NCBI GenBank assembly: GCA_965247515.1
Contig: OZ252029.1
Span: 6,543,391 to 6,607,390 of the forward strand
From: Bryobacterales bacterium
GTDB taxonomy: Bacteria; Acidobacteriota; Terriglobia; Bryobacterales; UBA6623
DNA length: 64,000 bases
Direction: 5' to 3'
Shown here: positions 1,741 to 62,228 of the stretch, one piece after another
How the letters are laid out: every line of letters starts with the position of its first letter
Position numbering within the stretch: the stretch's first letter is position 1
The notes under the pieces: model-generated
Seen by the model: only the letters and a program-made list of their open reading frames with translations
Told to the model about the DNA's origin: nothing
The model's database searches: none
Position numbers and translations under genes: made by a program

Positions 1741-1750
1741 GACGAATGGC

Positions 1751-1770
1751 GGGCGAGGCATGCCTCGCCC
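1751..1770. repeat. REP family A: 20-bp perfect palindrome GGGCGAGGCATGCCTCGCCC followed by CTACG
   Basis: Perfect self-complementary 20-mer 11 nt after the stop at 1740. The same sequence occurs at 5361-5380 and, with one mismatch, at 55960-55979. Confidence 0.85.
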
Positions 1771-1858
1771 CTACGCGCGCGTTGAGACACGTAAACGCAA
1801 GGAGGACCGCAAACGCCAACAGCGCCCGCGGCCCTGAAACCCTGTCCGAATCCGAAAC

Positions 1859-5335: not shown

Positions 5336-5360
5336 TGCTAGTGAGGACGGAAGCAAGTGC

Positions 5361-5380
5361 GGGCGAGGCATGCCTCGCCC
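5361..5380. repeat. REP family A palindrome GGGCGAGGCATGCCTCGCCC
   Basis: Identical to 1751-1770. It starts 26 nt after the stop at 5335, between convergent genes. Confidence 0.85.
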
Positions 5381-5401
5381 CTACGGCCCTGCGTAGGATT
5401 C

Positions 5402-15335: not shown

Positions 15336-15642
15336 CCAGACCGCCATGGGCTGGCCCTGTCCCTCGAGCACATATCGAATTGCGTGCAAGACTGGTTCGC
15401 GGCCGTTGATCCGTCTAGTGCTACCGATATTTGCAAACGTCGATGATTGCGCGGAGGACGATCGCGCGGCAGGTCGCGTTTAGGCTGTAGGGCCGTTCTT
15501 TCATCAGCCTGTGCGCGGTTTCATAGCGGGGTTCATCCTCTGGCGGCAGCCATGATCCGGGTAGGTTGTGAAGGCGATCGATTGACCCGCGCTCTTCGCC
15601 GTGAAAGTTGCTTGTCGACGAGCGCCGGGCACGAGCGTTTCT
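15336..15642 (-). pseudogene. Internally deleted remnant of a RAYT-like (IS200/Y1-type, REP-associated) transposase
   Basis: N-terminal piece ...ERPYSLNATCRAIVLRAIIDVCKYR* stops exactly where this family normally continues RGW.LLA.HVR.NHVH.VV (the HUH motif). A different frame about 30 nt downstream reads ...VLHAIRYVLEGQGQPMAVW, which resembles the family C-terminus. REP hairpins flank it on both sides. The family consensus is recalled from memory, not searched. Confidence 0.4.
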
Positions 15643-15730
15643 CGGAGCCGCGCGCGTCAGCAAGCGGTTGCCAGAGTAAGCGACTCAGCTGTGAACTCCA
15701 GCAACCGCTTGCTCACGCGCGCGGCTCCGG
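15643..15730. repeat. REP family C hairpin, near-perfect
   Basis: CGGAGCCGCGCGCGTCAGCAAGCGGTTGC ... GCAACCGCTTGCTCACGCGCGCGGCTCCG: 29-bp arms with one mismatch and a 30-nt loop. Confidence 0.85.
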
Positions 15731-15747
15731 GTCATACAATACGCTAG

Positions 15748-24846: not shown

Positions 24847-26235
24847 TAGGTAACACAATTCCCCGATCACATGGGTAACACATTGGCATCCTAGAACAAA
24901 AGGAGGACTTTTGTTTTGGGATGGAAGGAGACCCGTGTGCAAGACGAAAGATTGCGATTCGTTCAAGAGGTTCTAACCCGGGAGGATGCCATGGCCGCCG
25001 TCTGTCGGCGCTTCGGCGTCAGCCGCAAGACCGGCTACAAATGGCTCGATCGCTACGCCCAACAAGGCGTCGCCGGATTGGCCGATCAATCCAAAGCGCC
25101 CAAACGGCAAGCGCAAGCCTTTCCCGCCGAGATCGAGCGAGAGATCCTGGCCTTGCGGGCGCGCTATCCCACTTGGGGCAAAGACAAGCTCAAAGCGCGA
25201 CTCGAGCGCACCAACCCTGACATCAATTGGCCGGCGCACTCCACTATCGGGGCGCTGCTGAAACGCCACGGACTCACCCACCCCGGTAAGCGCCGGCGCC
25301 ACGCCACGCCTTCCAGTAAGCTCACCAGCGCCAAGGCGCCCAACCAAGTTTGGGCGATCGATTTCAAGGGTTGGTTCGACACCGGCGACGGCAAACGCTG
25401 CGATCCGCTGACGATTTCCGATACGGCGAGCCGCTATCTGTTGCGTTGTCAAAGGGTCGCGCGCAGCGACACGGCGCACGTGCGGCCGCTGATGGAAGCG
25501 ACTTTCCGGGAGTACGGCCTGCCCACGAGGATCCTTTCCGATAACGGTCCGCCGTTCGCCTCGACGGGCTTGGCGGGGCTTTCGCGGCTCAGCGTGTGGT
25601 GGATCCGGCTCGGGATTCAACTGCAGCGAATCGACCTCGGACACCCTGAGCAAAACGGGCGTCATGAGCGCATGCATCGGACGCTCAAGGCCGAGACGGC
25701 GACGCCGCCGGAGCGCAACTTGCGAGCGCAACAGCGGGCGTTCGATCGTTTTCGGCAGATCTACAACCAGGAGCGTCCGCACGAGTCGCTAGCGATGGCA
25801 ACGCCGGCGAGCGTGTATCAGCCGTCGTGGAGGCCGTATCCGGAGCGCTTGCCGGAGCTGGAGTATCCGGATCGGATGCTGCCGCGGCGAGTGCAGAGCA
25901 AGGGCGACATTGGGTTGCTGGGGCGTCAGTTGTTTCTCAGCGAGACCTTGGCGGGCGAGACGGTGGGCCTGGAAGAGCATGAGCACGGCTGGGCGGTCTG
26001 GTTTGGGCCGCTGGAGCTGGACTGGCTCGAGCGTAGCCTATTCGAGGGCCCGCGGCCGGGCAGGGGGGAGCACCGACTGCGGCGGAAACGCTCGGGGGGC
26101 GCCTCCTCCGCTCGCCCTACGGGCTCGCTCCCCCGGCGCCCCCCGAGCGTTTCCGGGAAGGATTTCGTGCAAAGAACCTTCTCTTGGTTCAACCCTTAAA
26201 CTGTTACCTATGTGGTTGGGGAAAAGTGTTACCTA
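24847..26235 (+). mobile_element. IS481-family insertion sequence (~1.39 kb) with ~38-bp imperfect terminal inverted repeats
   Basis: Left end TAGGTAACACAATTCCCCGATCACATGGGTAACACATT. Reverse complement of right end TAGGTAACACTTTTCCCCAACCACATAGGTAACAGTTT (about 31/38 matches). Each end carries two GGTAACA boxes. No clear target-site duplication was seen. Confidence 0.75.
24916..26199 (+). CDS. IS481-family DDE transposase (HTH + rve integrase core)
   Basis: RFGVSRKTGYKWLDRY (HTH), WAIDFKG (D), ILSDNGPPF (D), HPEQNGRHERMHRTLK (E). Confidence 0.85.
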   Translation: MGWKETRVQDERLRFVQEVLTREDAMAAVCRRFGVSRKTGYKWLDRYAQQGVAGLADQSKAPKRQAQAFPAEIEREILALRARYPTWGKDKLKARLERTNPDINWPAHSTIGALLKRHGLTHPGKRRRHATPSSKLTSAKAPNQVWAIDFKGWFDTGDGKRCDPLTISDTASRYLLRCQRVARSDTAHVRPLMEATFREYGLPTRILSDNGPPFASTGLAGLSRLSVWWIRLGIQLQRIDLGHPEQNGRHERMHRTLKAETATPPERNLRAQQRAFDRFRQIYNQERPHESLAMATPASVYQPSWRPYPERLPELEYPDRMLPRRVQSKGDIGLLGRQLFLSETLAGETVGLEEHEHGWAVWFGPLELDWLERSLFEGPRPGRGEHRLRRKRSGGASSARPTGSLPRRPPSVSGKDFVQRTFSWFNP

Positions 26236-30023: not shown

Positions 30024-30134
30024 CAAGGGAGTGCCCCATGGGCCTGACTGCCCACCCAAAGCGATGAAAACGGTCGCCCCGGAGCCGCGACCGTGAGGGA
30101 GCGGTTGTCGCAGCCGGGGACAACCGCTTGCTCA
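30024..30134. repeat. Left part of composite repeat D (REP family C type), interrupted by the IS1182 copy
   Basis: GCAAGGGAGT...GATGAAAACGGTCGCCCCGGAGCCGCGACCGTGAGGGAGCGGTTGTCGCA...CAACCGCTTGCTCA aligns with 50440-50548. Confidence 0.65.
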
Positions 30135-32030
30135 GGGGCCGTGAAGAAAACCTATTGTCGCGTCGGCGCGCGGGAGCGCCAAGCGCACGCCAAGCTCAGC
30201 GCTGCCGAACGCCGCCCCTGCCGAAACCGCAACTTCTGCGCCTCGACTCCTGATTGACCGCCTGAGCGGCCCGGAAACGGTCGTTTCGGGCCGTTTCCCG
30301 GCCCTTTTCGCCCCCCCCACCGCCGCTACGCCGCCGCTTGCGCCGCCAGCCCGCACTCGGGCCCACGACGCCAGACCAGCCGGATCCAAGCCGCAATGTT
30401 GTACGCCAAAACCCCCCACAAAAGCTCCGATCGCGCCTTCCGCAGCCCTCGTACTCGAAACTTGCGCACCCCCAATCGCTCTTTCAACCAGGCGTTCGGA
30501 AACTCCGCCGTCTCGGACCGCTTGCGATACGCCGCCCGCCCACGCTCGCTCTCCATCCAGCGCCGATGTTTCGCCATCACCGCGTTCTCTTCGCTGCGGC
30601 TCAACGTTCGATGACCGCTCTTGGGGCAGCACTTGTGCCGCTGTGCGCATTCGCGACAATCAGATGCTTTTGCCTGATACTGCCGATATTTGCGCTTCCG
30701 CTTCAGCGACGATCGCTGATACGTCAAGGTCCGCTGGGCCGGACACAGAAACGTGTCCGTCGCCTCGTCGTAGATGAAAAACTTCGGCGCGTAGCGCGGC
30801 CCAATTCCCGCCGCCTTCAACGCCGCCTTCGAGCCCTTGTCCGGCGCCGGCGCCGGCGTCGCGTATTCGATTTCAGCGGCTGCCAGCGCCTCGATGTTGG
30901 CCTGGTTGGCGTAGCCCCCGTCCGCTAACACTTGCTTCGGGGTTCGCTCGAAGCGCCCTTCCACATCGTCCAGCGTCGGGGTCAGCTGGCCCGCATCGGA
31001 GGCGTTGTTGGTCAACTCCACGCCGACCACGATCTTCTCTTTGGCGTCGGTCGCCAGCTGCGCGTTGTAGCCGAGTCCCCAACCGCCGTTGGATTCGTGT
31101 TGCGGGCGCGCTTCCGGCTCGCTCTCGCTCACCCGCGCCTGGCGTCGTTGCTCTTCGTCGCGCTTGCCCGCTTCGACCTTGGGCAGTTCCTCCAGCGCCT
31201 GCTCCATCCGCTCGACTCGCTCCCGCAAGGTCCGCTTACGCGCCGCCTGACGCCGCCGATTCGAACCTTCGTCGTCGGCTTCTTCCGAGAGTTGACGCAC
31301 CGCTTCGCGCGCTTGTTCGAGATGCCGCTCGAGCGTCGGACGCCTGCGTTGCGACCCGCCCGAGGCTTGCGCCCGGATCCGCGTGCCGTCGACGGCCACC
31401 TGCTCGAGATCCACCAGCCCCTCTTGACTCAGCAGCGCCAATACCTGTGTCAACAAGTTCTCGAGAGCTTTTGAGTGGAATACCCGAAAATCCGAAAGAG
31501 TGTGATGATTGACGACCGCCATGCCGCACAACCACTCCAACTCCGGCCGATAGCGGCTTTGACGCGCGATCTCACGCGCCGAGCTCATCCTTTCCGAATA
31601 CGCCCAGATCCAGATCGCGACCAGCAACCGCGGATCCCATGCCGGCCGCCCGGCGGACTCCTTGCGGGTTTCCAGATGAGCAGCGAAGCCGGACAGGTCG
31701 AGCATGCCGCTCAGCTCCCAGACGGCGCGCACCAGATGGTCGGCCGGCACGAGCCGTTCGACGTCGATCGCGGCATAGGTGAATTGGTCGCGATTGGGCT
31801 GTCGCAGCTGCAGTTGGTCAACGGGCACGGCTTGGCGCGGCTTGGCGGGGCGTTGCTCGAGCTCGACTAAGACCTGTTGTTCGCCCATATAATAAGGGCG
31901 TTGGACGCCGCCGCCAAGTTATCCGAACATTCGTTTGCCCTCATGTTTTATCCCATTTTGATCCACTCGCGCCATTCCGAACCGCCCCAGGGGAGCTTCG
32001 GCGGCCACGACGGGTTTATTTCACAGCCCC
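30135..32030 (-). mobile_element. IS1182-family insertion sequence (~1.9 kb)
   Basis: Terminal inverted repeats GGGGCCGTGAAGAAAACC (30135-30152) and GGGTTTATTTCACAGCCCC (32012-32030) enclose a single transposase gene. It splits a repeat that is intact at 50440-50632. Confidence 0.8.
30326..31888 (-). CDS. IS1182-family DDE transposase
   Basis: 520 aa. ...VPADHLVRAVWELSGMLDLS...GRPAWDPRLLVAIWIWAY...VAVDGTRIRA...VLADGGYAN...CRECAQRHKCC...ETAEFPNAWLKERLGVRKFRVRGL are layout and motifs typical of IS1182/IS5-like transposases. Confidence 0.85.
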   Translation of the reverse strand: MGEQQVLVELEQRPAKPRQAVPVDQLQLRQPNRDQFTYAAIDVERLVPADHLVRAVWELSGMLDLSGFAAHLETRKESAGRPAWDPRLLVAIWIWAYSERMSSAREIARQSRYRPELEWLCGMAVVNHHTLSDFRVFHSKALENLLTQVLALLSQEGLVDLEQVAVDGTRIRAQASGGSQRRRPTLERHLEQAREAVRQLSEEADDEGSNRRRQAARKRTLRERVERMEQALEELPKVEAGKRDEEQRRQARVSESEPEARPQHESNGGWGLGYNAQLATDAKEKIVVGVELTNNASDAGQLTPTLDDVEGRFERTPKQVLADGGYANQANIEALAAAEIEYATPAPAPDKGSKAALKAAGIGPRYAPKFFIYDEATDTFLCPAQRTLTYQRSSLKRKRKYRQYQAKASDCRECAQRHKCCPKSGHRTLSRSEENAVMAKHRRWMESERGRAAYRKRSETAEFPNAWLKERLGVRKFRVRGLRKARSELLWGVLAYNIAAWIRLVWRRGPECGLAAQAAA

Positions 32031-32120
32031 ATAGAGGGCGGCTCCGGGGCCGCGGCGCATTCCGCGGTGGTCGGCGGTCGGCAGTCAGCGGGTTTTCGAC
32101 AGAGCGGGTTCCGCAATCTG
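32031..32120. repeat. Right part of composite repeat D, displaced by the IS1182 insertion
   Basis: ...GCGGCTCCGGGGCCGCGGCGCATTCCGCGGTGGTCGGCGGTCGGCAGTCAGCGGGTTTTCGACAGAGCGGGTTCCGCAATC aligns with 50556-50632. Confidence 0.65.
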
Positions 32121-50439: not shown

Positions 50440-50632
50440 GCAAGGGAGTATCTGATGGCCTCACAGGCCACCCATGAGGATGAAAACGGTTGCCCCGGAG
50501 CCGCGACCGTGAGGGAGCGGTTGTCGCAACCTCGAGCAACCGCTTGCTGACGCGCGCGGCTCCGGGGCGGTGGCGCATTCGGTCGGCGGTCGGCGGTCAG
50601 CGGGTTTTCGACGCAGCGGGTTCCGCAATCCG
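50440..50632. repeat. Composite repeat D, intact copy (~190 bp)
   Basis: GCAAGGGAGT...GATGAAAACGGTTGCCCCGGAGCCGCGACCGTGAGGGAGCGGTTGTCGCAACCTCGAGCAACCGCTTGCTGACGCGCGCGGCTCCGGGGCGG...CAGCGGGTTTTCGACGCAGCGGGTTCCGCAATC is colinear with 30024-30134 plus 32031-32120. Confidence 0.7.
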
Positions 50633-55632: not shown

Positions 55633-55867
55633 GAATCCTCCGCGCCCGATTCACCAATCGTCAGCCGGCTGCATGACACACCCCTCCCTGGGCGAGGCTC
55701 CGCGCAAGGTTCTACCCTGCACGCTTATCCGCCCCGCGGCAAGGCGCCGAACCGTCGGCGAACCGTTGCCCTCGGATGCGAGATCCCGCCTCCACTGCCG
55801 CCGTGAGCTGAATTATCGATCGCCTTCTAGCCCCAATACTGTCGGACATAGGCGTCGAGACCGCGAC

Positions 55868-55922
55868 CGGAGCCGCGACCGGAAGGGAGCGGTTGCCTGA
55901 GACTCCGGCAACCGCTTGCTCA
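55868..55922. repeat. REP family C unit forming the left flank of the MITE
   Basis: CCGGAGCCGCGACCGGAAGGGAGCGGTTGCCTGAGACTCCGGCAACCGCTTGCTCA. The complementary tail TTCCGGTCGCGGCTCC follows the MITE at 56073-56088. Confidence 0.75.
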
Positions 55923-56072
55923 GGGGCTGTGAAAAAATCGCCCGTTGAGCGCGAAAGACGGGCGAGGCATGCGTCGCCCCTACCGACGATCGTTTGTTTT
56001 CAACGACGTAGGGGCTTGGCATGCCAAGCCCGTCTTGCCGGAATTGGATCCCCGACATTTTTTCACAGCCCC
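55923..56072. mobile_element. 150-bp MITE sharing terminal inverted repeats with the IS1182-family element
   Basis: Termini GGGGCTGTGAAAAAATCG / CGACATTTTTTCACAGCCCC, compared with IS termini GGGGCCGTGAAGAAAACC / GGGTTTATTTCACAGCCCC. The interior is palindromic and includes a REP-A copy (GGGCGAGGCATGCGTCGCCC). There is no coding capacity. Confidence 0.7.
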
Positions 56073-56163
56073 TTCCGGTCGCGGCTCCAAGGAATCGTTG
56101 TCTGCTTTAGCATGCGTGGCCCCTGACCGCGCGGTCTTACGCCGTAGTAAGCAGGAGAACACA

Positions 56164-60446: not shown

Positions 60447-62037
60447 TGGAGTGAACCCCAAGCGTGAGACAGTCGAAATCGGGACAGGTTACGATTCACC
60501 GCAAAACGCTTGCCTTCTTCGCTGTATCGTCGCACGCTGGTCCTAGCCGGGGAAGCGGAAACGGGCTCTGCTGGAGAGCAACCCGCCAAGGAATACCCGG
60601 CCGCAAACTCATCAAGACGATGAGCGCCGGGGGCGGCCGCCAAGGTCGCTCCCGGCTTCTCCAACGCCGGCGATGTCTCCCTGCCCGCCCAGGGCCCATC
60701 GGATTGATAGATTTGCCTATGCCTCTCAAAACTCATACTTCGGATTCCTCGCTGCTGTTGCCGCCGGCCGCGCCAGCGCTTCAAACTCCGCCGGCGGACG
60801 ATATCCCAACGCCGAATGCAGCCGGCGTTGGTTGTAGATCTCATCAATGAACTCGCCGATCGATGCGCGCGCCTCGTCAAGCGTGCGATAACGCTGCAAC
60901 CAAACCTCCTCCGCCTTCAACGTCTTCATGAAACTCTCCGCCCGCGCGTTGTCGTAGGGGTTGCCGCGGCGGCTCATCGAGATGATCGCGCCGTGCTGCT
61001 CCAGCAGCTCGACATAGGCGCTCGAAGCGTACTGTACGCCTTGGTCGGAATGATGCATCCACCCCGCGGCAGGGCGTCTGAGCTCGAGCGCATCGCGCAA
61101 CGCCCCTACAGCCAGCTCAGCTTTGAGCGTCGTCCCCAGCCGCCAGCCGACCACGCGTCGCGAGTAGGCGTCCAACACCACGGCGAGGTAGACGAACGCC
61201 TCGCGCAAGCGAATGTAGGTGATATCGGATTGCCACAACTGATCGACGCCGTCCACATTCAGGTGCGCCGCTAGATTCGGATAAACAGGTAAGAAGTGGT
61301 TCGAATCCGTTGTTAGCACGAAGCGCCGCTTGAGTACCGCCAGCAAGTTGTCCTTACGCATCATCCGCAGGACCTTTTTGTGATTGACGAGGAAGCCTTG
61401 GCGGCGCAGCTCGGCCGTCACGCGGCGGTAGCCGCAACGACGATTCTCGAGCGAAATCCGCTGCATGCGGTCACGCAATTCCATGTCGCACTCGGCGGGC
61501 GACGACACGGCGAGCCGGCGATAGAACCCGGCGCGATTCACGCGTCCGAGCTCGCAGGCGTGTTCGACGCTGAGCGAGCCTTTGGCGCTGATCTGCTCGA
61601 CGATGGAGTAGATCCGCTCGCGCCACCGGCGTCGTTGGTCGGGGCTGCGAGGTTCAAGGCGCGAAAGGCTTGTCCGAAAAAATCGAGCTCTGCGGCTTGT
61701 TTGCCGAGCAGTCGTTCGAGCTCTGCGATGCGTTCGTCGCGCGGATCGCGAGGGATCTTGGGCGGCGCCGAGCGGCCGGGTTTCGGCCGGCCTCGCCGCC
61801 GGCTCAAGCCGTTGACGCCTTCCTGGCGATAGGCGTCCCGCCAGCGGTACAGCAGGCTGCGCTTGACGTCCAACTCGCGGCTTAGCGCTGTGCCGCTCTG
61901 GCCGGCTAGGAGCCGCCTGGCGGCGGCTTCCTTGAACTCCCGCGGCTTGCGCGGCTTGAGACTTTCCATCCTGGACTCCTTTCCATTCGCTGAAATTCGT
62001 CCCAAATTTCAATGTCTCATTTTTAGGGTTCACTCCA
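60447..62037 (-). mobile_element. IS3-family insertion sequence, copy B (1591 bp) with a 3-bp target-site duplication ATT
   Basis: Same termini as copy A. ATT at 60444-60446 and at 62038-62040. It differs from copy A by a 12-bp indel in orfA and a few substitutions. Confidence 0.9.
60726..61969 (-). CDS. IS3-family transposase OrfAB (programmed -1 frameshift)
   Basis: orfA MESLKPRKPREFKEAAARRLL... lacks the TVEF of copy A. The orfB translation is identical to copy A in the ORF track. Confidence 0.85.
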
Positions 62038-62040
62038 ATT

Positions 62041-62228
62041 TGTCCCAGGTGAATCGCCGCCACAGTTAGGGCGCGCCTTTGAAACGCCTGCTTGGCGAGA
62101 TTCGCTTCCTCTCGAATCTTGCGAAATGCGGCATCTGAATCGGAACGCAGGAATCTCCAAACGGTAATGCAGCTCCCCGCAGCTCCAAACAGTCCCAAGA
62201 CGATTCCTAAGAAGCTCACGAAGTCCAT
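62041..62228 (-). pseudogene. 5' part of a small membrane-protein ORF interrupted by IS3 copy B
   Basis: MDFVSFLGIVLGLFGAAGSCITVWRFLRSDSDAAFRKIREEANLAKQAFQRRALTVAAIHLGQ then reads into the IS end. Removing the IS and one ATT keeps an open frame to 60176, but the distal coding frame is ambiguous. Confidence 0.35.

Follow-up and report, generated by a model that had tools for sequence, protein, structure and literature searches.

MITEs derived from insertion sequences (ISs) of the IS1182 family are already known from the ISMac2-related elements of Methanosarcina acetivorans (PMC3852290). The 150-bp element studied in this work resembles those MITEs, of 160–169 bp, in being short and non-coding, in having IS1182-family ends and in occurring in several copies per genome. 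However, the ISMac2 MITEs are archaeal, carry repeats of 25–26 bp with duplications of 0–4 bp and have no reported REP targeting (PMC3852290), whereas the element described here belongs to an acidobacterial host, has a 3-bp duplication (perfect in three of its five full-length copies), is REP-specific and has as its core a doublet of another REP family. Members of the IS1182 family are also known to target palindromes, an example being the staphylococcal IS1272 (PMC5678879, citing Siguier et al.). IS1272 shares with the elements described here the IS1182 transposase family, terminal repeats of about 16 bp, the choice of inverted repeats or stem-loops as targets and occasional insertions without duplication. 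However, IS1272 is reported to replace unrelated stem-loops, without duplication and without sequence consensus (PMC5678879), whereas our elements sit at a single, defined site within one repeat family and, as a rule, are flanked by a 3-bp TNA duplication (33 of 48 junctions).

REP targeting has been documented for the IS3, IS110, IS4, IS256 and IS5 families, the targeting elements including IS1397 and ISKpn1 (IS3), IS621, ISPpu9, ISPpu10 and ISPa11 (IS110), ISRm22 (IS4) and ISNm1106 (IS5) (PMC1525189). As in those ISs, nearly all the copies analysed here were found at a fixed REP position, the REP being a high-copy intergenic safe haven (PMC1525189). In contrast, IS1182 is absent from the five families of that survey (PMC1525189), and in the present case a cognate MITE shares the target. 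Text searches of the literature found no report of REP targeting by the IS1182 family. MITEs derived from IS1182 elements, the targeting of palindromes by members of that family and the use of REPs as targets by ISs of other families have all been published before. The present case of one repeat family living inside another is well documented but fairly ordinary, and it is no new kind of system. The locus described here adds IS1182 to the IS families that use REPs as safe havens, with an unusually clean definition of the target (one TNA triplet in a hairpin repeat of about 75 bp, from 48 junctions) and with natural filled and empty alleles. It also provides a matched autonomous and non-autonomous pair from an uncultured soil acidobacterial lineage, which could show how a DDE transposase of the IS5/IS1182 type reads a hairpin target, and it accounts for a number of repeats and for rearrangements between strains in Bryobacterales assemblies, which is of value for their annotation.

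A further likeness, suggested by the TNA duplication, is with the PIF/Harbinger elements of eukaryotes and their Tourist MITEs (mPing/Ping/Pong). Their DDE transposases are related to the IS5/IS1182 group, they produce a 3-bp TNA/TWA duplication, and their short non-autonomous partners share only the termini with them. PIF/Harbinger elements, which occur in eukaryotes, depend on a second, Myb-like protein and are not known to target REPs.

The stretch of DNA analysed (64 kb, hereafter the window) was compared with metagenome-assembled syntenic strains (L058–L069), obtained by exact-protein look-ups with window genes, and with another 20 loci of 21 kb from the same species (L078–L087 and L105–L114), reached through the near-identical transposases P0121 and P0122. 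The exact look-up of the window transposase itself and of its cluster representative, P0001, returned no record of either. The named homologues of the Lhr helicase encoded in the window, at 61–68% identity, were all from Bryobacteraceae or Bryobacterales, and housekeeping DNA of the species was 68% identical to that of a Bryobacterales MAG. The host was accordingly assigned to the acidobacterial order Bryobacterales, and a planctomycete origin, to which the PSCyt/PSD/DUF1501 and sulfatase genes of the window had seemed to point, was rejected.

The 150-bp MITE, the 1896-bp IS and their ends

The full-length IS of the window (IS1896; 1896 bp, positions 30135–32030, minus strand) belongs to the IS1182 family, whose members are about 1.3–2 kb long (ISfinder). 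It contains a single ORF (30326–31888, minus strand) encoding a DDE transposase of 520 amino acids, which matched the NCBIfam equivalog model NF033551 (transpos_IS1182) with 404.8 bits (cutoff 270) over residues 31–503 and, also over their cutoffs, the Pfam domains PF05598 (DUF772, N-terminal), PF01609 (DDE_Tnp_1) and PF13751 (DDE_Tnp_1_6). The ends of the element are GGGGCCGTGAAGAAAA and, reverse-complemented, GGGGCTGTGAAATAAA, and they agree with each other at 13 of the 16 terminal bases. Copies of IS1896 in other strains and at other loci were at least 99% identical, indicating recent activity; these copies, together with the filled and empty alleles described below, suggest that the element is active.

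The second element (55923–56072, without assigned strand) is a non-coding MITE of 150 bp with perfect terminal inverted repeats of 16 bp, GGGGCTGTGAAAAAAT on the left (55923–55938, plus strand) and ATTTTTTCACAGCCCC on the right (56057–56072, minus strand), or of 17 bp with the flanking A/T included. It has no coding capacity, the sole ORF overlapping it being produced by mechanically extending the downstream gene to a TTG start. Folded as single-stranded DNA, the 220 nt comprising the MITE and its surrounding REP-C gave −85.7 kcal/mol (z = −13 against shuffled sequences). With IS1182-type ends and four further full-length copies at other loci, the 150-bp element behaves as a MITE.

The preliminary description of this DNA had reported that the MITE and the IS have similar ends and unrelated interiors, and both points were confirmed. 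The first 11 nt, GGGGCYGTGAA, are common to the four ends, and the MITE repeat agrees with the two IS1896 ends at 14 and 13 of 16 positions, while beyond about 17 nt the two elements are unrelated. A 15-mer taken from the ends and searched with up to two mismatches gave four matches in the window, where 0.35 were expected by chance, and they were precisely the four element ends. We considered that the likeness could nevertheless be coincidental, the 150 bp being just a local REP-A doublet with fortuitous inverted ends, since the core of the MITE is indeed a doublet of REP-A palindromes and REP-A also exists outside it. However, all the end matches fall on the two elements, the complete 150-bp unit recurs with its ends at other loci where it is flanked by duplications, and MITEs delimited by the same ends occur in many genomes. 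Chance similarity is refuted by the count of ends and by the recurring units with duplications, and we consider this explanation extremely improbable.

When 185,579 species genomes were scanned for the pattern GGGGCYGTGAA...TTCACRGCCCC, 57 short elements bounded by it were identified, in hosts including Ruminococcus, Clostridiales, Armatimonadota, Planctomycetota and Bryobacterales MAGs, and duplications of 3–4 bp flanked many of these elements. MITE formation is thus common in this IS1182 clade. No full-length IS with these ends was found in the 8-kb pieces around the 57 loci in other genomes. The short elements (L001–L057, 132–162 bp) were often located inside local palindromes, with 3–4-bp duplications such as TCCG in an Armatimonadota MAG; example loci are L003 and L028 (Armatimonadota), L036 and L057 (Planctomycetota) and L001 and L005 (Ruminococcus). 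In other Bryobacterales MAGs, MITEs with the same termini occupied the same REP-C position as in the window (L018, L055, L020 and L042). As the host and those MAGs are all Bryobacterales, REP-C and the related MITEs are shared within an order and not across phyla. Among relatives of the window transposase, the element encoding P0037 (54% amino acid identity) has the ends GGGGCTGTGAAAAATA and shares GGGGCYGTGAA with the IS and the MITE, as does the 61%-identical relative described below. The motif GGGGNNGTGAA was absent from the ends of the element encoding P0113 (47% identity, Bryobacteraceae), which indicates that only the closer clade has it.

The closest match to the MITE ends was provided by another relative, IS1860, of 1860 bp and with a transposase of 529 amino acids (61% amino acid identity), represented by ten copies (L088–L097). 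Its ends, GGGGCTGTGAAAAAAT(C), are identical to the MITE repeat at 16 of 16 positions. It sits at the same REP-C position, and nine of the ten copies have TTA or TAA duplications. The preliminary description had proposed that the IS1182 transposase mobilises the MITE. The shared ends, the common target and the multiple copies are in favour of such a mobilisation, but the identity with the IS1860 termini means that the IS of the window is not necessarily the parent or the sole mobiliser, and judging from these termini the IS1860 lineage may have played this role. It could even be that the MITE belongs to IS1860 and is moved by its 529-aa transposase, IS1896 sharing only the target and cross-reacting poorly or not at all. 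The MITE copies, 91–99% identical to one another, are also more diverged than those of IS1896 (at least 99%), which suggests an older burst. However, a BLAST search of the DNA sampled from the window species, about 0.7 Mb, found no copy of IS1860, only the 67%-identical IS1896 being matched. In addition, the MITE repeat differs from IS1896 at positions 6, 12 and 13, just where the two ends of IS1896 also differ from each other, so that its transposase evidently tolerates variation there and cross-mobilisation by the transposase of the window is plausible. Finally, the MITE and IS1896 are found together in the same REPs. For these reasons we hold an exclusive role of IS1860 to be rather unlikely, although it has to be kept in mind.

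Besides, a second IS1182-family element, with a transposase of 464–466 amino acids and ends CAGCCCGTGG..., was seen repeatedly abutting the 1896-bp IS (L059:19703-21180, L065:7660-9110, L086:8437-9858 and L105:8437-9858).

The target triplet of the REP-C repeats

The MITE of the window interrupts a REP-C, the two parts of which are on the plus strand. The left part (55869–55922) consists of the outer stem GGAGCCGCGACCG (55869–55881), the triplet GAA (55882–55884), the left inner stem GGGAGCGGTTGC (55885–55896), a loop of 11 nt (55897–55907), the right inner stem GCAACCGCTTGC (55908–55919) and the triplet TCA (55920–55922). The right part (56073–56088) contains the triplet TTC (56073–56075) and the outer stem CGGTCGCGGCTCC (56076–56088). 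The MITE is bracketed by a perfect complement of 19 nt (55869–55887 and 56070–56088). The IS is inserted in the same way: the left part of its REP-C (30081–30134, plus strand) ends in the inner stem CAACCGCTTGC followed by TCA, and the remainder lies to its right (32031–32049, plus strand). REP-C outer-arm motifs were found 14 times in the window and 2–7 times per 21-kb locus, and the REP-C hairpins are stable (z from −4.7 to −8.7).

According to the preliminary description, both elements are preceded by an identical 14-mer and followed by the rest of a REP, the insertion taking place at a defined site of the hairpin. The exact 14-mer CAACCGCTTGCTCA was indeed found before the IS and before the MITE and, a third and last time in the window, at 15702 in an empty REP-C (15635–15731, plus strand), where it is directly followed by CGCGCGCGGCTCC. 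With up to two mismatches it was found nine times, against 0.47 expected. The remainder of the REP is likewise present behind both elements, as ...TTCCGGTCGCGGCTCC after the MITE and ...GCGGCTCCGGGG after the IS. However, the 14-mer does not hold as a general target, since other copies carry CAACCGCTCCCTCA, GACCACTCCCTCA or the opposite arm in its place; the exact sequence is dispensable, and what stays constant in the target is a TNA triplet with the inner stem on one side and the outer stem on the other.

This was established from the flanks of 48 distinct junction pairs, comprising the IS1896 loci of the window species, the ten IS1860 copies and five full-length MITEs. Once aligned, 47 of the 48 were located at one position of the REP-C arm, ...AACCGCT(TG/CC)C-TNA-CG(CG/GT)CGCGGCTC, which supports the defined site that had been postulated. 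The lone junction off REP-C (L109) is also at the centre of a small palindrome. T-N-A was present on both sides in 45 junctions, and the 3-bp duplication was perfect in 33, the other 15 being without a perfect one. Both arms of REP-C and both orientations are used. When the empty REP at 15635–15731 was folded, the central base of TNA appeared as an unpaired single-base mismatch within a long stem. Two empty REP-Cs, 15635–15731 (TCA/TCA) and 50494–50568 (TGA/TGA), have the same triplet in both arms, the mismatch being exactly at the insertion point.

The most direct evidence for a target common to the IS and the MITE is a REP at L080 that is occupied by both, with an IS in the left arm (TTA/TTA) and a MITE in the right arm (TCA/TCA), at mirror-image positions.

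We give a probability of roughly 80% to the reading that the MITE is moved in trans by an IS1182-type transposase into the REP-C TNA site that it shares with the IS. The geneless MITE would carry the terminal repeats of about 16 bp that are bound by the DDE transposase of this lineage, and the enzyme would be supplied in trans by a full-length element, either the 1896-bp IS of the window or a closely related IS whose ends are identical. This transposase would put both IS and MITE into the TNA triplet that separates the inner stem (AACCGCTYSC) from the outer stem (CGSKCGCGGCTC), in either arm of REP-C and in either orientation, with duplication of the 3-bp triplet. The target would probably be recognised through the REP sequence, the hairpin structure or both. 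Mobilisation of the MITE by this transposase is, at the sequence level, the likely source of its copies.

Copies, alleles and possible exchanges at REP-C sites

At least five full-length MITE loci, all of 150 bp, were present in the DNA sampled from the window species (about 0.7 Mb). Apart from the copy at window position 55923 (flanking triplets TCA/TTC, right REP arm), they are L080:8144 (TCA/TCA, right arm), L081:9599 (TCA/TTA, right arm), L081:21398 (TAA/TAA, left arm) and L086:5912 (TCA/TCA, left arm and opposite orientation). The 3-bp duplication is therefore perfect in three of the five, and it is missing at the window copy and at L081:9599. Partial MITEs lacking the left 28 nt were identified at L081:16, the same site as L110:8197, and at L084:18520, and another partial copy at L109:12942. 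When metagenomes were scanned with a 22-mer specific to the MITE, the eight matches were either unrelated or related to it only at the ends, and no further copy of the MITE was found.

Concerning the IS, a clear case of filled and empty alleles was provided by the REP-C at 50494–50568 (plus strand), in which the target TGA (50548–50550) follows the inner-stem match (50537–50547). As in the window, this REP is empty in L065 and L069, the contig of the latter ending just past the target triplet, and it is IS-filled in L062, L063, L064, L067 and L068. The arrangement in L062 and L063 is ...CAACCGCTTGC TGA-IS-TGA CGCGCGCGGCTCC, L067 has the IS in the opposite orientation, and L064 and L068 carry two ISs with the inner REP hairpin between them. 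At the same site, L066 (11786–11920) retains only a 135-bp remnant of one IS end, and the right REP arm is deleted. This remnant and the loss of the arm resemble an IS-associated deletion. Polymorphic empty sites, which the preliminary description had put forward as a check of its proposal, thus exist for the IS, but comparison of the strains revealed no clean empty allele for any MITE site, only IS and MITE alternating at two of them.

At the first of these two sites, an old degraded IS (L110:17573-18933; 82% identical, TTA/TTA) is found where another strain has a MITE (L081:9599-9748; TCA/TTA), with otherwise identical flanks. At the second, the IS at L078:9859-11754 corresponds to the MITE at L081:21398-21547. 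The presence of an IS in one strain and of a MITE in another at the same REP suggests that elements are replaced at occupied sites. It could thus be argued that the window copy, and perhaps most copies, arrived when REP arms underwent homologous recombination or gene conversion, which brought part of the donor flank along, and not by transposition. The flanks of the MITE in the window are of mixed type, in line with such an exchange: the left one, TTGC TCA, is of another REP-arm subtype than the right one, and the right one, TTC CGGTCGCGGCTCC, is the perfect complement of the left arm of its own REP (...CCG GAA GGG...). Unmatched triplets at 15 of 48 junctions, in spite of the youth of the IS copies, also agree with this explanation. 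However, the perfect IS-type duplications of three of the five MITEs would not be created by conversion, and the homology between REP arms is short (about 12–30 bp). A recombination pathway could supplement transposition but not replace it, and as the principal origin of the MITE copies it seems doubtful to us. Under the preferred reading, in which the copies arise by transposition into the TNA site, most of the junctions without matching triplets, that of the window MITE included, would have become so afterwards, when elements or REP arms recombined or underwent gene conversion through their shared ends.

The MITE of the window is itself an atypical copy, either old or rearranged. Its flanks, TCA and TTC, form no target-site duplication and its site is filled in seven of seven syntenic strains, so that it gives no sign of recent movement. 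In one strain (L065:17173-17400, syntenic with window 55923–56090) the last 27 bp of the MITE are replaced by a 61-bp segment similar to window 55778–55830, followed by ATTTTTTCAC, a second REP inner arm (TCCGGCACCGCTTGC) and then CCCTTCCGGTCGCGGCTCC.

The IS of the window also lacks a target-site duplication (TCA/ATA), whereas the same site in four other syntenic strains has a perfect one, TCA-IS-TCA followed by CGCGCGCGGCTCC. Immediately to the right of the IS (32031–32037), the window alone has ATAGAGG in place of the TCACGCGC of those four strains, and this change from 8 to 7 nt eliminates the TCA duplication as well as some of the REP outer stem.

Single REPs with elements in both arms, either two ISs or an IS and a MITE, were observed at L106:7922-11760, L064:11801-15589, L068:2573-6431 and L080:6202-8293, and the IS-hairpin-IS units among them look like potential composite transposons. 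At L078, the IS lies between TAA and TTA outer stems and the inner hairpin is missing, and this was considered as a stem-loop replacement of the type reported for IS1272. However, L112, which is partly syntenic with L078 and shares the region downstream of the IS, contains two adjacent, directly repeated ISs, and recombination between them gives the L078 arrangement, for which reason the replacement reading was downgraded. Unlike the replacements reported for IS1272 (PMC5678879), the seeming ones found here are explicable by recombination between neighbouring copies (L112 versus L078).

The REP-A core of the MITE and the surrounding DNA

The core of the MITE (55955–56036, without assigned strand) consists of two GTAG-headed REP-A palindromes in inverted orientation, separated by a spacer of 24 nt and forming a REPIN-like doublet, with arms of 29 nt that are 83% complementary. 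The preliminary description had noticed a REP-A palindrome in the interior; there are in fact two, and the palindrome CGGGCGAGGCATGCCTCGCCCCTAC recurs as singlets at window positions 1750 and 5360. A REP-A doublet located outside any MITE was found at L086:12379-12446. REP-A (GTAGGGGCGAGGCATGCCTCGCCCG) is a GTAG-headed palindromic family seen both as singlets (window 1750–1774 and 5360–5384) and as doublets, and ten GTAGGGGC heads were counted in the window.

Two other Bryobacterales MAGs contain MITEs with the same layout and with about 70% identity to that of the window, and the palindromes of these MITEs differ from those of the window through paired, compensatory changes. These palindrome variants were not seen outside the MITEs in the small samples of those genomes. 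The MITE might accordingly be viewed as a conserved chimera of IS1182-type ends around a GTAG-headed REP doublet (REPIN), whose pairing is kept across Bryobacterales. Such a chimera could have two unrelated movers, a DDE transposase acting through the ends and a Y1 RAYT acting through the core, and it might be exchanged with full-length ISs at occupied REPs, by recombination via the REP arms or by transposase-mediated end replacement as proposed for IS1272. We offer this view as a speculation with the odds well against it; if it were true, three repeat families would be nested in and co-evolving with one another. Genes with a Y1_Tnp domain, possibly RAYTs, were observed at L083:15335-15790, in the window species, and at L098:2155-2633, directly downstream of an IS1182 transposase gene from Bryobacteraceae.

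No match to any Rfam family was obtained anywhere in the window. The window is rich in mobile elements, and two further transposase ORFs were located at 24916–26199 and 60726–62228, one of them IS481-like (HTH, rve and LZ_Tnp_IS481 domains) and the other IS3-like (HTH_21 and rve). Its gene content also includes PSCyt/PSD/DUF1501 and sulfatase genes.
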